64,000 nt of DNA from Candidatus Poribacteria bacterium (GCA_965214095.1 OZ243938.1:32001-96000); one strand, 5' to 3'. Numbered from the stretch's first letter, positions 46,953 to 50,262 are shown. Numbers and translations are program-made. The notes: generated by a model not told the origin, from the letters alone.

Positions 46953-47708
46953 TTATTCGTTATATTTAACGCTGGTAAGTGACAACCCGTGTGCAGGTGC
47001 TGATGGACCTGCCATTGATCTATCCCTCAACTCCATAATATCATGAAACATCTTACATGCTACCTCTACATTTCTGTTTGCTTTCTTCATGCATTTCAAT
47101 GCAGTGCCAACAATTGCACGAACCATTCCTCGCAAAAACGAATCTGCTTCAATTTCAAAAAAGACATAGTCATCTGTTCTATAGCAACTTGCATCGAAAA
47201 TCTCACACACAGGATTCAATCTATCGCTTCCCGTTTTTTGAAAGGAAGAAAAATCCAATTTACCATTCATGCAGCGACAAATCGCATCAAGTGAATCAAC
47301 CGCAATTGGTAATGAGAACAAGTATGCTGTGTGCCGTCTCAGTGCTGATGGATAGTCTCTGTTTAGAATAGTATACCTATATTGTCGACTCTTAGCACTA
47401 AATCTTGCATGAAAATCTGTTGGCACTTCATCAACATCTGTAACAACAATATCTCGTGGTAAAAAGGTGTTAAGTCCTTTTTGAAAGGCTATCGTTGGAA
47501 TTGATAATTCGGTAAAGAAGTTTGCCACTTGTCCTTCTGCGTGCACGCCAGTATCTGTCCTACCAGCACCGATAATCTGAATCGGAGTTTTCGTAAGCTG
47601 TGCCAAGGCATCTTCAACCTTATCCTGAATTGTAGGAAGTTCCGGTTGCTTCTGCCATCCGTGATAATTAGTGCCATCATATTCAAGTACAAGTTTGATA
47701 TTTCTCAT
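46953..47708 (-). CDS. truA: tRNA pseudouridine(38-40) synthase
   Basis: YDGTNYHGWQKQ, GAGRTDTGVHA, FHARFSA, SFLRGMVRAIVG, APAHGL. Confidence 0.96.
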   Translation of the reverse strand: MRNIKLVLEYDGTNYHGWQKQPELPTIQDKVEDALAQLTKTPIQIIGAGRTDTGVHAEGQVANFFTELSIPTIAFQKGLNTFLPRDIVVTDVDEVPTDFHARFSAKSRQYRYTILNRDYPSALRRHTAYLFSLPIAVDSLDAICRCMNGKLDFSSFQKTGSDRLNPVCEIFDASCYRTDDYVFFEIEADSFLRGMVRAIVGTALKCMKKANRNVEVACKMFHDIMELRDRSMAGPSAPAHGLSLTSVKYNE

Positions 47709-47743
47709 TCTGCCACATTGAAACAGATTTGTATTCGGATTAC

Positions 47744-48175
47744 TTGACCGCTCCTACACCTAAAGGAGTGGGATTCTTGTTCCTACTCCGAGCAATTTAG
47801 GATTTAGATTTATGCCACTTGCAAAGTCAATCTATTGGGTCATCTTCCTCACTTTAGAACATGTGTTCCGTGTGAGGTTTCCCACTCCAGACATGATGTC
47901 TTGTTGGGACAACACAGGTTACAAAACCTGCGGTGCGGGTCATGAGGCACTCTACGGAAAACTTTGTTGCTTACAAAGCCGACCGATACTTTTGACTGTC
48001 AGTTACAGTGTCAAAACTTATGAATATATCAGCGTTCCTATCTTTCAAGGCTTTTCGCTTATGTTTCATGTTTTTCGCAGTGTCTTGGTTTTCTGCATCT
48101 GCTCATTCCGCTACAAAGGAGTGGTAGAGAACATTAGCAAGGAATGCCAAAGTTGTAATTCTCTACCAGCAGATG
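47744..48175 (-). ncRNA. Candidate ~430-nt structured RNA ending in an omegaRNA-like 3' module at the right end
   Basis: Many helices, several with G-U pairs only on the minus strand; GAAA loops; dedicated upstream promoter. Confidence 0.55.
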
Positions 48176-48180
48176 TCCGA

Positions 48181-48209
48181 ATTATACTACATTTTAACTA
48201 TAAAGCCAA
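48181..48209 (-). promoter_or_regulatory. Sigma70 promoter inside the non-autonomous element
   Basis: TTGGCT-N17-TATAAT on the minus strand. Confidence 0.65.
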
Positions 48210-48293
48210 GTGTTTTTGATTAACAAACATAACGGTTTCCGTTGGACATCACAAACCTAAAGGATTGGGTTTTGAACGGAACGTCCTGATAAG

Positions 48294-48321
48294 ATTATCA
48301 TATACTATATTCAGGTGTCAA
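48294..48321 (-). promoter_or_regulatory. Probable native truA promoter in the 55-bp spacer between the two IS elements
   Basis: TTGACA-N16-GATAAT on the minus strand. Confidence 0.45.
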
Positions 48322-48348
48322 ATGAAATTGTATATATGATATATTCAA

Positions 48349-49611
48349 CTACCCAAGCCTAAAGGCATTAGGATTGTTAAGAGGTTCAAACAGCGATAAC
48401 TGAATGATTTTCTTCTCCATAGCCTTTGTTGCTTCGTTCTTGTTTCTCGTTTCATAGAGGGTGGTAACCCACCGCTCTCCACGACGGGCAGCAGCTGCCC
48501 GAAAAAGTCCGTTTATTGCAGCGTTGTGGTCTCGGTCAAGCGAGTGTCCACAATATCCGCAGTTGAATGTCCGCACCGATAGCGATATTTTTTTCGGTGC
48601 TTTCTGTCCGCAGCAAGAGCAAGTTTGCGAGGTGTTCTTTGGATCGACTTGGTAGAAATGGAAACCGTCTCTTTCGGCTATGTTCCCACACCACTCAAAG
48701 AAGTGTGCCCAAGACGCATCGCTGATACTCTTGCTGAGGTGTTTGTTCTGAACCATATTGGCAGTATTTAGATTTTCGGTTACCAAGACATTATTTTTCT
48801 TATGATGGTAGAGTTTGTAAACGAGTTTACCGATAAAGTCTCTGCGTCTGTTTACAGTGCGCTCCTGATGTAAAGCGAGTTTGTGTTGTTGTTTCTTTCT
48901 ACGGTGAGAACCTAACTTTTTACGAGAAAGGTCTTTAGCGTGCTTGCGGAGTAATCCCTCCGCTTTGCGATACCAACGCGGGTTGTCAACTTTTTCACCC
49001 TCAGATGTCGTCAAATAGTGGTTCGTGCCGACATCAACGGCAACAGCACGGGTCGGTTCCACTTTCGGTGTATCACCAATGTCGCAGGAGATATGTGCAT
49101 ACCACCCGGAGGCTTTTTTCACGATAGTAACCTCTTTCGGGTCACCTTGGATGGGACGGGACATCCGCATCTTGATTTCACCGAGTTTGGGCACAATCAG
49201 TCTATCTAAACGGTGCTTCGTTGGACGAATAGGATTTTGACGAATGCCTGCTTTGTTCTTACGTAGACTCCAGGTGAGAGAACGGATACGTTTGCGATAG
49301 CGTGGGAATCCCGGTTTTTCACCACCTTGTTTGACACGACGGAAAAAGTTCGCAAAAGCTTTGTTCACACGTTGAAGTGCGTGTTTCTGAAACTCTTGCG
49401 GCACAATGTCGAAGTCTTCATACTTTGCACGTGCTTGTGTCAGAAGTCGACACTGTTCAGCATAACTTACAGAACGTTTCTTTTCTTCATACGCACGCAT
49501 ACGATTCAGTCGCGCTGAGTTGTGTAACTCACACAAATGCGAAAGATATTGATATAACTCGGTTTCTTGCGTAGGTGTCGGATACAAGCGGTATTTGAAC
49601 GTTAAAACCAT
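48349..49611 (-). CDS. tnpB: RNA-guided endonuclease TnpB (IS200/IS605 OrfB)
   Basis: FKYRLYPT, KPGFPRYR, RuvC D (AVDVG), E (VTENL), D (DRDHNAAIN), Zn finger TSQTCSCC...CGYC. Confidence 0.95.
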   Translation of the reverse strand: MVLTFKYRLYPTPTQETELYQYLSHLCELHNSARLNRMRAYEEKKRSVSYAEQCRLLTQARAKYEDFDIVPQEFQKHALQRVNKAFANFFRRVKQGGEKPGFPRYRKRIRSLTWSLRKNKAGIRQNPIRPTKHRLDRLIVPKLGEIKMRMSRPIQGDPKEVTIVKKASGWYAHISCDIGDTPKVEPTRAVAVDVGTNHYLTTSEGEKVDNPRWYRKAEGLLRKHAKDLSRKKLGSHRRKKQQHKLALHQERTVNRRRDFIGKLVYKLYHHKKNNVLVTENLNTANMVQNKHLSKSISDASWAHFFEWCGNIAERDGFHFYQVDPKNTSQTCSCCGQKAPKKISLSVRTFNCGYCGHSLDRDHNAAINGLFRAAAARRGERWVTTLYETRNKNEATKAMEKKIIQLSLFEPLNNPNAFRLG

Positions 49612-50027
49612 TATTTACCTCGCTGGTTCTCTACATACTTGCGAAGCACTTCTAAAGTGATACCCCCTGTGGAGGCGATAAATCTAGAACGCGTCCAAAG
49701 CGAGGGAATACGAGATTTCAGAGAGGGATACTCATCACGCAACACACGAGAAGTCCAACCTTTGATCTTGCCAACGACAGATGCAGGAGCGAGTTGGGGA
49801 CTACTACTCATCAGAATATGAACATGGTCATCCATCACTTCACAGGCGTGCACTTCATACCCATAAACCTCTTGTTGTTCATAGATCAGTGTTTTGAGCC
49901 GTTCAGCAATAGGAGAGACAAGCACAGGACGACGATATTTTGTGCACCAAATCACATGGTAATCACAACTATAGACTAAAGAATGAGTTGATTTGTAGGT
50001 AGAGGGTTTTTCTTTAAGTTCTAACAT
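49611..50027 (-). CDS. tnpA: IS200/IS605 Y1 HUH transposase TnpA
   Basis: YHVIWCTKYRR, HUH motif DHVH, LWTRS, catalytic YVENQ. Confidence 0.95.
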   Translation of the reverse strand: MLELKEKPSTYKSTHSLVYSCDYHVIWCTKYRRPVLVSPIAERLKTLIYEQQEVYGYEVHACEVMDDHVHILMSSSPQLAPASVVGKIKGWTSRVLRDEYPSLKSRIPSLWTRSRFIASTGGITLEVLRKYVENQRGK

Positions 50028-50060
50028 TCTATATATTCATTTATTAGATATATATTATAT

Positions 50061-50089
50061 ATAATAACATATATTTAGTTAATAGTCAA
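50061..50089 (-). promoter_or_regulatory. tnpA-tnpB promoter
   Basis: TTGACT-N17-TATTAT with extended TG, between the left-end hairpin and tnpA. Confidence 0.55.
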
Positions 50090-50163
50090 ATATATTTGGG
50101 CTAAAGCAAAGAAAAGTCCTCATATCCCAAGTCTAAAGACTTGGGCTTCACGGACTATGAGAG

Positions 50164-50262
50164 GTGAATTATAACTATAAGTTGGCACCCGAGACCCACG
50201 GTAGGCAAGGTTTCCTAACCTCGCCGATGCAGAGTGTTCAAGTAATTTCAAAATCTACTATA
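50164..50262. mobile_element. 103-bp MITE-like repeat, copy 2 (terminal TATA displaced to 48340-48343 by the IS insertion)
   Basis: Inverted ~91% identical copy of 3568-3670; 99 bp here plus 4 bp on the far side of the IS gives 103 bp. Confidence 0.8.

Follow-up and report, generated by a model that had tools for sequence, protein, structure and literature searches.

The 64,000-nt stretch of the genome of a Candidatus Poribacteria bacterium analysed here (GCA_965214095.1, OZ243938.1:32001-96000; hereafter the window, with positions counted from its first letter) contains a 545-nt unit on the minus strand at 48288..47744. The unit lies in the 640-nt gap between a 420-aa open reading frame (ORF; 48349-49611) and truA (46953-47708). 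It is a small protein-free mobile element of the IS200/IS605 type from sponge-associated Poribacteria that carries a promoter of its own and encodes a conserved, folded RNA about 430 nt long. The element and its homologues are called family A below. Its parts and the adjoining bases are as follows, with the evidence in brackets; G032 is the genome of the closest relative.

47744..48288, minus strand: family A element, protein-free, IS200/IS605-type, 545 nt (homologues in other flanks; empty site; no conserved ORF; no TnpB similarity)
48289..48292, minus strand: TTAT target and left cleavage site, in the flank outside the element; expected transposon-associated motif (TAM) for a TnpB guided by the element RNA (88/88 distinct insertions; empty site in G032)
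48250..48273, minus strand: left-end subterminal hairpin CCCAATCC-TTTA-GGTTTGTG (48269-48250) and guide tetranucleotide AAAA 5' of the hairpin (48273-48270) (sequence; copies)
48181..48209, minus strand: sigma-70-type internal promoter TTGGCT-N17-TATAAT (promoter scan, score 10/12; TTGAC/TATAAT-like boxes align in the copies)
48096..48175, minus strand: 5' leader, a three-way junction of an outer stem, a long hairpin and a short hairpin (helices 1, 2, 4 and 5, all compensatory; model R2, E 1e-15)
47994..48095, minus strand: linker with two small conserved hairpins (GCAG.../...CTGC and ACTGT/ACAGT) and the GAAAGATAGG motif (helices 6 and 7, helix 7 extended)
47744..47993, minus strand: omegaRNA-like 3' domain, from the invariant AAGTATCGGT through a series of hairpins to the right end (invariant motifs, helices 8-15; weak similarity to TnpB omegaRNAs)
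47744..47776, minus strand: right end with guide GAAT, hairpin CCCACTCC-TTTA-GGTGTAGG (47772-47753), AGCGG and cleavage site TCAA (47747-47744) (fixed-geometry parse)
47728..47743, minus strand: right flank GTAATCCGAATACAAA, predicted guide portion if the RNA is an omegaRNA, and also part of the truA 5' leader (from IS605/TnpB logic)

An initial annotation made from the sequence alone had proposed the TTAT at the left end, the left hairpin with its TTTA loop, the right-end hairpin and the terminal TCAA. All of these were confirmed by the sequence, the homologues and an empty site, and the internal promoter it had named was recovered by our scan. The first base of the element is C 48288, directly after the TTAT at 48292-48289. 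Members of the family begin with CAA and end with GGTCAN; they have no terminal inverted repeats, and both ends carry subterminal imperfect palindromes with a TTTA or TTCA loop. The left-end hairpin is kept with compensatory changes (columns 25-66 of alignment A3). In IS608, the cleavage sites are reportedly recognised by pairing with the tetranucleotide 5' of each hairpin, and the same logic had been proposed for the element. It holds at the right end, where the guide base was located by a fixed-geometry parse in 86 copies: the last guide base is complementary to the last base of the element in 73 of them (GAAT/TCAA 53, GAAC/TCAG 17, GAAA/TCAT 3). This complementarity to a variable last base sets the last base of the element at 47744. 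At the left end, family A combines AAAA with TTAT, and a sister family (family B, described below) combines AAAG with TTAC; some copies have AAGA, which does not fit the rule.

The empty site TTAT/GTAATC (the slash marks the insertion point) had been predicted for relatives, and exactly this site was found in G032, a sister species whose truA flank is 94% identical. It reads ...gataatcTTAT/gtaatctgaatac..., without duplicated bases; the G032 flank, ...gataatcTTAT/gtaatctgaatacaaaac..., is free both of the element and of the insertion sequence (IS) that lies upstream of it in the window. The site upstream of truA in a further genome, G021, is likewise empty of the element. A different insert of about 250 nt with inverted ends was observed in the intergenic region upstream of this G021 ortholog (L163:~1205-1455).

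Full-length relatives occur in unrelated flanks in other genomes of the genus, and a profile search of the fetched loci returned 21 full-length copies including that of the window. A strict pattern for the core, run against one genome per species from 185,579 species, matched 105 stretches, which contain 94 further full-length copies and 26 partial hits. Among the matches listed, 79 of 80 are Candidatus Poribacteria metagenome-assembled genomes (MAGs), and a single Poribacteria genome record supplies at least 40 of the stretches listed there; the odd one, from Polynucleobacter, was rejected as a chance pattern hit inside a coding region. A metagenome scan gave two stretches, one with a 5'-truncated copy and the other without a real match. 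As judged from these collections, the family is found only in Candidatus Poribacteria. Its spread there is patchy: of 40 genomes of the genus, 9 have it, each in 1 to 12 copies. Removal of duplicates left 88 distinct insertions in Poribacteria MAGs, with sizes of 491-612 nt, and TTAT precedes every one of them. When 82 insertions were tested, 60 crossed no open frame and 22 lay in frames, 12 in the sense and 10 in the antisense orientation. Family A inserts as a unit 3' of TTAT, without target duplication, and the proposal of a mobile, protein-free IS200/IS605-type element is borne out by the empty site, the invariable TTAT and the lack of a conserved ORF (see below). The family accounts for a class of repeats of about 0.5 kb in Poribacteria MAGs, and such repeats may break short-read assemblies. 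Right-end matches were also seen about 75 nt from contig ends in the genomes G033 and G034.

The region folds better than its shuffled versions on both strands (z = -4.57 for minus and -4.87 for plus; 0 of 100 shuffles as good). With 14 aligned copies, 71 pairs were predicted, and 40 of these show compensatory changes. From 29 representatives with less than 93% identity (29 clusters; mean column identity 49%), RNAalifold predicted 77 pairs, of which 60 have compensatory changes. In the 67 pairs downstream of the promoter, 94.4% of the cells hold standard pairs, compared with 72.8% (standard deviation 0.6) in shuffles and 37-44% with slid partners; both sides have changed in 55 of the 67, and 0 of 500 shuffles reach any observed measure, although the structure was predicted on the same alignment that was used for testing, which favours structure. 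Despite this bias, the slid controls and the number of pair types leave little doubt about the fold, and the fold of the RNA of about 430 nt is maintained by compensatory changes. G-U is the commonest pair at 483-501 (25 of 29) and at 432-454 (17 of 29), so the folded strand is the promoter strand, as had been argued from G-U pairs in the initial annotation.

Most of the individual helices named there are upheld by the 29 copies. CATCTGC/GCAGATG, TGGTAGAGAA/TTCTCTACCA, CTTTGT/ACAAAG, CGCAGG/CCTGTG and TAGATT/AATCTA are all compensatory, as are the core 3 bp of TTGGCA/TGCTAA. From the proposed TTTTGAC(AC)TGT helix, ACTGT/ACAGT is likewise supported by compensatory changes, together with part of the TTTTGA/TCAAAA extension. 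The pairing of GCTGATAT with GTATCGGT has to be given up (33.8% of cells paired), GTATCGGT being an invariant motif whose CGG pairs elsewhere, and so does the long-range GAAAAC/GTTTTC, which is 69% paired, has no covariation and conflicts with a supported helix. CCTCAC/GTGAGG is 66% paired and sits in a length-variable stretch. A pseudoknot between AAGAUGRC and the 3'-terminal GCGGUC, predicted from 14 sequences, was rejected for lack of covariation in 29. None of 4227 Rfam models hit the window at gathering thresholds, and a search of 47600-48450 at E up to 10 gave six chance-level hits (E 0.74-6.6), all far below threshold. The ribozyme-like RNA suggested earlier, or a group I reading, is not upheld, given the absence of an Rfam match and of a sense bias in genes.

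No ORF is conserved on either strand among the 29 representatives, whose longest ORFs vary in frame, start and length. A 135-aa antisense ORF (47812-48219, plus strand) was discarded because it has no Pfam match and neither its length nor its frame is kept. A tblastn search with six TnpB proteins found no TnpB remnant in family A (best E 0.57), and a decayed tnpB was accordingly rejected as the interior of the element; in family B, seven TnpB proteins (that of locus L157 added) gave nothing significant. The statement in the initial annotation that no tnpA or tnpB remnant is visible is therefore correct within the element, but a complete tnpA-tnpB IS 51 nt upstream had been overlooked. The neighbouring genes and the copies of family B in the same genome (G000) are:

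46953..47708, minus strand: truA, downstream of the element (Pfam PseudoU_synth_1; G032 ortholog)
48349..49611, minus strand: tnpB of the neighbouring IS, 420 aa, not in the element (Pfam HTH_OrfB_IS605, OrfB_IS605, Cas12f1-like_TNB)
49611..50027, minus strand: tnpA of the neighbouring IS, Y1 transposase, 138 aa, candidate trans mobiliser (Pfam Y1_Tnp, E 2.5e-36)
G000:C1:3916742-3917284 (plus strand), 4732562-4733105 (minus strand) and 1997598-1998138 (plus strand): three copies of family B, about 540 nt, protein-free (loci L158-L160, L017)

The neighbouring IS is a complete IS200/IS605 element with tnpA, tnpB and about 90 nt of other sequence on its left side (window 48339-50259, minus strand). 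It has four copies in the genome, and its block is also absent from the G032 ortholog. The genome holds four intact tnpA genes of one kind and one partial one, the nearest intact tnpA being 1.3 kb away from the element, together with about 22 TnpB-type hits. A palindromic motif, GGTAGG...GGAAACC...CCTACC, recurs beside several mobile elements (window 50195-50215; the flank of L121; G000:C1:~4555500) and is maybe a REP-like repeat. According to the promoter scan and the G032 ortholog, the element has the same orientation as truA and separates the start codon of that gene from its promoter (48321-48294), and read-out from the element's promoter may now drive truA. The truA promoter is TTGACA-N16-GATAAT; the TTAT target begins 2 nt past its -10 box (GATAAT-C-TTAT), with the leader side of truA at 47708-47743.

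Several kinds of element in the genus begin with this left end and promoter: tnpB genes whose 5' untranslated region (5'UTR) is structured (L012, L014, L022, L032 and L020, identified by Pfam), mini elements with an omegaRNA tail but no tnpB, and family B. The family A left end and promoter match the tnpB-bearing locus L014 at E 1.9e-18. A covariance model of the first 80 nt of the family A RNA (R2) matches the 5'UTRs of tnpB genes at L032 (E 4e-5), L014 (0.0017), L020 (0.006) and L157 (0.006); L022 reaches only 0.56 and no hit was obtained in L012 or L018, so that four of the seven tnpB-bearing loci searched have E<0.01. All four matches lie between promoter and tnpB start codon on the right strand, and the same model finds family B at E 4e-12 to 6e-7. 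These model matches show the leader to be akin to tnpB 5'UTRs, and the 5' domain of family A is thus the leader of tnpB mRNAs. The three-way-junction RNA in tnpB 5'UTRs (L032:1611-1681, L014:1367-1437, L020:1372-1440 and L157:2895-2965) is kept in protein-free derivatives and has no Rfam family.

A second model (R3) was made from 12 TnpB-linked omegaRNA regions of the L157/L014 TnpB clade. It matches family B over its full length (E 2e-15 to 2e-11), and it matches the 3' halves of family A on the right strand unevenly (L042 at E 7e-6, L005 at 6e-5, L084 at 2e-4 and L134 at 1e-3). By eye, family A and the L157 clade have in common the order AAGTATC, hairpin, GT(T)AG and a run of hairpins to the right-end palindrome, with family A about 90 nt longer. 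A model of the family A core (R1) matches the window copy at 47890-48013 with E 3.8e-24. Family B has the left end, leader and right end of family A (E 2.5e-21); it inserts after TTAC with the guide AAAG, and its promoter and right-end layout are as in family A. One of its copies lies about 270 nt downstream of the 3' end of a tnpB gene, an arrangement resembling that in the window. In the mini elements L011, L028, L031 and L037 (second hit), the left end and promoter are joined directly to the 3' tail of an L012-type tnpB, which is its omegaRNA region, without a gene between them. At L002, L003, L016 and L033 (about 60 nt past the left-end hairpin), the same hairpin is directly followed by GTGCGGGGTATCAC..., which resembles a group II intron 5' end inserted beside the hairpin. 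Longer, protein-coding versions with the family A core were looked for and rejected as a candidate, as none was present in the 105 genome stretches and the metagenome scan likewise gave none.

By the models, then, the RNA is a composite of a tnpB 5'UTR junction and an omegaRNA-like 3' part, not one enlarged scaffold. The initial annotation had read it as an expanded trans-acting omegaRNA. The single scaffold is contradicted by the 5' 80 nt, which correspond to the tnpB 5'UTR junction, while the omegaRNA part of that reading agrees with the 3' half to the extent of its uneven R3 match (E 7e-6 to >1).

In metatranscriptome libraries of two studies, which may be one data set filed twice, relatives (about 90%) of 47741-48019 occur on contigs of 394 and 434 nt. 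Beyond the right end these contigs extend into two different flanks for 41-49 nt, and on the 5' side they reach a further 68-112 nt; this would fit a transcript close to the predicted extent with read-out from the element. A TnpB omegaRNA is expected to read through the right end and to use some 16-20 nt of flank as guide; a promoter and terminator scan of this region of the window found no terminator on the RNA strand at the right end. As for a possible partner, an L157-type TnpB (at least 69% identity) is present in 7 of the 9 genomes with family A compared with 9 of the 31 without it, these being kin genomes and not independent. TnpB-like ORFs of 527-563 aa were considered as special partners and rejected, since they belong to IS607-type loci in which the tnpB frame runs on over the serine-recombinase gene. 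These are the loci L153-L155 (G000:C1:~3414000, ~2451700 and ~2759600), with the type inferred from one locus: at L154 a 195-aa ORF overlapping the tnpB frame has a MerR-like start, which we take to be typical of an IS607 serine recombinase, and the overlap presumably makes tnpB look 527-563 aa long. The genome also encodes five RRXRR ORFs of 354-409 aa (IscB/IsrB-like; G000:C1:2600008, 4219961, 1931886, 172950 and 4128720).

Taking these data together, we consider family A to be the descendant of a TnpB-only IS that has kept both ends of the tnpB transcript, is moved by TnpA in trans and supplies a guide for homing by a TnpB in trans; we would give this reading a probability of about 0.6. Most likely, a TnpB nuclease encoded elsewhere in the genome uses the RNA as its guide; this guide function and the partner are what we infer from the features described above. 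Such an element resembles the palindrome-associated transposable elements (PATEs) discussed below. In this scenario, a TnpB-only IS would have lost its coding sequence and kept the 5'UTR three-way junction and the 3' omegaRNA scaffold, and the scaffold would later have been enlarged by extra hairpins. A Y1 TnpA made elsewhere, for example by the adjoining IS, would excise the top strand and reinsert it. Transcription from the internal promoter would pass the right end into the flank (here GTAATCCGAATACAAA...), a TnpB from another element could bind the scaffold and cut the vacated site (TTAT plus flank), and recombination with a sister copy would then restore the element. For the conserved 5' junction, a role in RNA stability or processing is our guess.

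Several observations count against this interpretation. R3 gives the window copy E 4.3, L006 7.2 and five more family A members 0.02-0.7, and in the reverse test R1 scores the tnpB tail of L157 at 5.5 bits (E 1.8). R1 finds no TnpB tail in the genome and matches family A only, and there is no tnpB-bearing element with a family A core in the 105 genome stretches and the two metagenome stretches. Two family A genomes (G019 and G014) are without an L157-type TnpB, and in the copy-richest ones (G003 and G020) the L157-type homologue begins only at residue 45. Among the four copies of the neighbouring IS the left flanks differ and are not clearly TTAT, so the neighbouring TnpA may not be the cognate one. 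In the 29 copies, no covariation supports the pairing suggested between an internal motif and the 3' end. The window copy is the only one in its own genome, and its right-end hairpin pairs at 6 of 8 positions, with two mismatches. The assembled contigs alone show neither the strand, nor the ends, nor whether RNA or DNA was their source.

The same data may be read in other ways. Family A could be a mobile element whose RNA is not a nuclease guide but a decoy or regulator that binds TnpB or TnpA, an outward promoter unit (here for truA), or a catalytic or sensing RNA centred on the 5' junction and the linker. We regard this as possible, though unlikely. The 5' 190 nt (leader and linker) covary as well as the 3' half, and no omegaRNA role accounts for them; the 3' half is only weakly like TnpB omegaRNAs, no cognate TnpB was recognised among the genomes compared, and the window element splits truA from its promoter and reads toward truA. 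However, a clear omegaRNA is present in the sister family B, whose leader and ends are those of family A, and the family A RNA stops exactly at the right end as omegaRNAs do. Moreover, the 82 insertions are mostly intergenic or, within genes, in either orientation, and Rfam gave no match to a ribozyme or riboswitch family. It seems improbable that the pairing is single-stranded DNA structure for transposition, or a constraint inherited from tnpB-bearing parents, with a transcript that has no function of its own. It is true that IS200/IS605 elements transpose with this very strand as single-stranded DNA, that DNA tolerates G-T pairs and that the family is a typical amplified non-autonomous element; yet IS608 needs only subterminal hairpins and cleavage sites, whereas here 15 helices over 430 nt covary among all-protein-free lineages with a mean column identity of 49%. 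The promoter is also retained in the copies, and no tnpB-bearing parent with the family A core was found in the stretches searched.

More improbable still is that the RNA serves an effector other than TnpB, for example one of the five RRXRR proteins of this genome, or an unknown protein. IscB/IsrB omegaRNAs have roughly 200-300 nt or more, and about 430 nt is nearer to their size than to that of typical TnpB ones. Against such an effector, the promoter lies within the left end, which makes a guide derived from the 5' flank, as in the IscB layout, impossible; HEARO does not match at E up to 10, neither the family profile HMM nor R1 matches near RRXRR genes, and the leader and ends are common to tnpB elements. 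An IStron-like or other self-splicing element that leaves host transcripts is the least probable of all. A T is the base before a group I 5' splice site, and a T also precedes the element. But searches at E up to 10 matched neither group I nor group II introns, the element brings its own promoter, and its last base is A, G or T, covaries with the DNA guide and is thus not a fixed G. The insertions, with 60 of 82 crossing no open frame and the rest in both orientations, speak against splicing as well. What remains in its favour is that IStrons join IS605 ends to a structured RNA of similar size and that mini versions without tnpB exist, as stated in the preprint by Zedaveinyte et al.

If the preferred reading of family A as an element with a trans-used guide RNA is true, it would be a clear example from nature of a transposon that has been stripped to its DNA ends, a promoter and a guide RNA and exploits the TnpA and TnpB of others. 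Covariation in an omegaRNA-like scaffold of unusual size can be studied directly on its many diverged copies. The tnpB 5'UTR junction kept after gene loss points to a step in the biology of tnpB or omegaRNAs that has gone unrecognised, for example in the control of expression, in processing or in stability, and this unnamed leader motif is maybe a more useful lead than the family A element itself. A bolder version, which is doubtful and decidedly unlikely in our view, would see family A as a guide-RNA transposon that has a promoter of its own and evolves independently as an RNA-only selfish element, with added RNA domains (the leader junction, the linker and two extra 3' hairpins) that do work which the parent left to its mRNA or to TnpB. 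If so, these domains could provide, for example, self-processing, protection from RNases, preferential loading on a foreign TnpB or the use of a different effector. Family A would then outcompete the tnpB elements that it parasitises, with 10-12 copies where the related tnpB is truncated.

With regard to known systems, IscB/IsrB omegaRNAs (Rfam HEARO) are, like the family A RNA, large multi-helix RNAs tied to elements of the IS200/IS605 family. Family A differs from them in having no HEARO match, a guide that would be 3' instead of 5', and no link to the RRXRR genes of the genome. IStrons, which combine a group I intron with IS605 or IS607 ends (Zedaveinyte et al. preprint), similarly have a structured RNA of several hundred nt between IS ends and an omegaRNA at the 3' side; family A, unlike them, has no group I core, possesses an internal promoter, is inserted in genes without a sense bias and ends in a variable base. 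With TnpB omegaRNAs (reRNAs) the family A RNA has several points in common: it is encoded at the right end, its last base is that of the cleavage site, which allows the flank to be the guide, the left-end target motif would act as TAM, a hairpin series ends in the right-end palindrome, and the AAGTATC-hairpin-GTAG motif is common to family A and the L157/L014 clade. In contrast to those RNAs, it is not within or overlapping a tnpB (the element has none), its scaffold has about 250 nt instead of about 157-160 nt in the related clade with a further 190 nt or so on the 5' side, and the model-based similarity is weak for most members. Family B and the mini elements without tnpB share the type of left end, the promoter, the leader junction, the right-end layout and the lack of a protein. 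However, the target of family B is TTAC and its 3' half is simply an L157-type omegaRNA, the minis have an L012-type tail, and the family A core is distinct from both, as R1 finds family A only.

As a non-autonomous element, family A is of the PATE kind. PATEs arise by core deletion from IS605-type elements (Dyall-Smith et al. 2011, PMC3119063) and often encode omegaRNAs that TnpB must use in trans (Meers et al. 2023 preprint). Like family A, they are described in these two papers as having no protein, no terminal inverted repeats, IS605-like subterminal palindromes, no target duplication and an origin through loss of the core of a tnpB element. The initial annotation had considered the element a candidate for an undescribed system; given the statement of Meers et al. 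(2023) that protein-free PATEs have trans-used omegaRNAs, the kind of element is already known. A literature search found no paper that combines Poribacteria and TnpB. Compared with the main-text descriptions of PATEs, family A is large (491-612 nt) and keeps a promoter and a tnpB 5'UTR junction fused to the 3' scaffold, and it has diversified widely as a protein-free lineage (29 clusters with less than 93% identity). The family itself is previously undescribed, and it is new in its composite RNA of about 430 nt, its retained leader junction and its long protein-free diversification.

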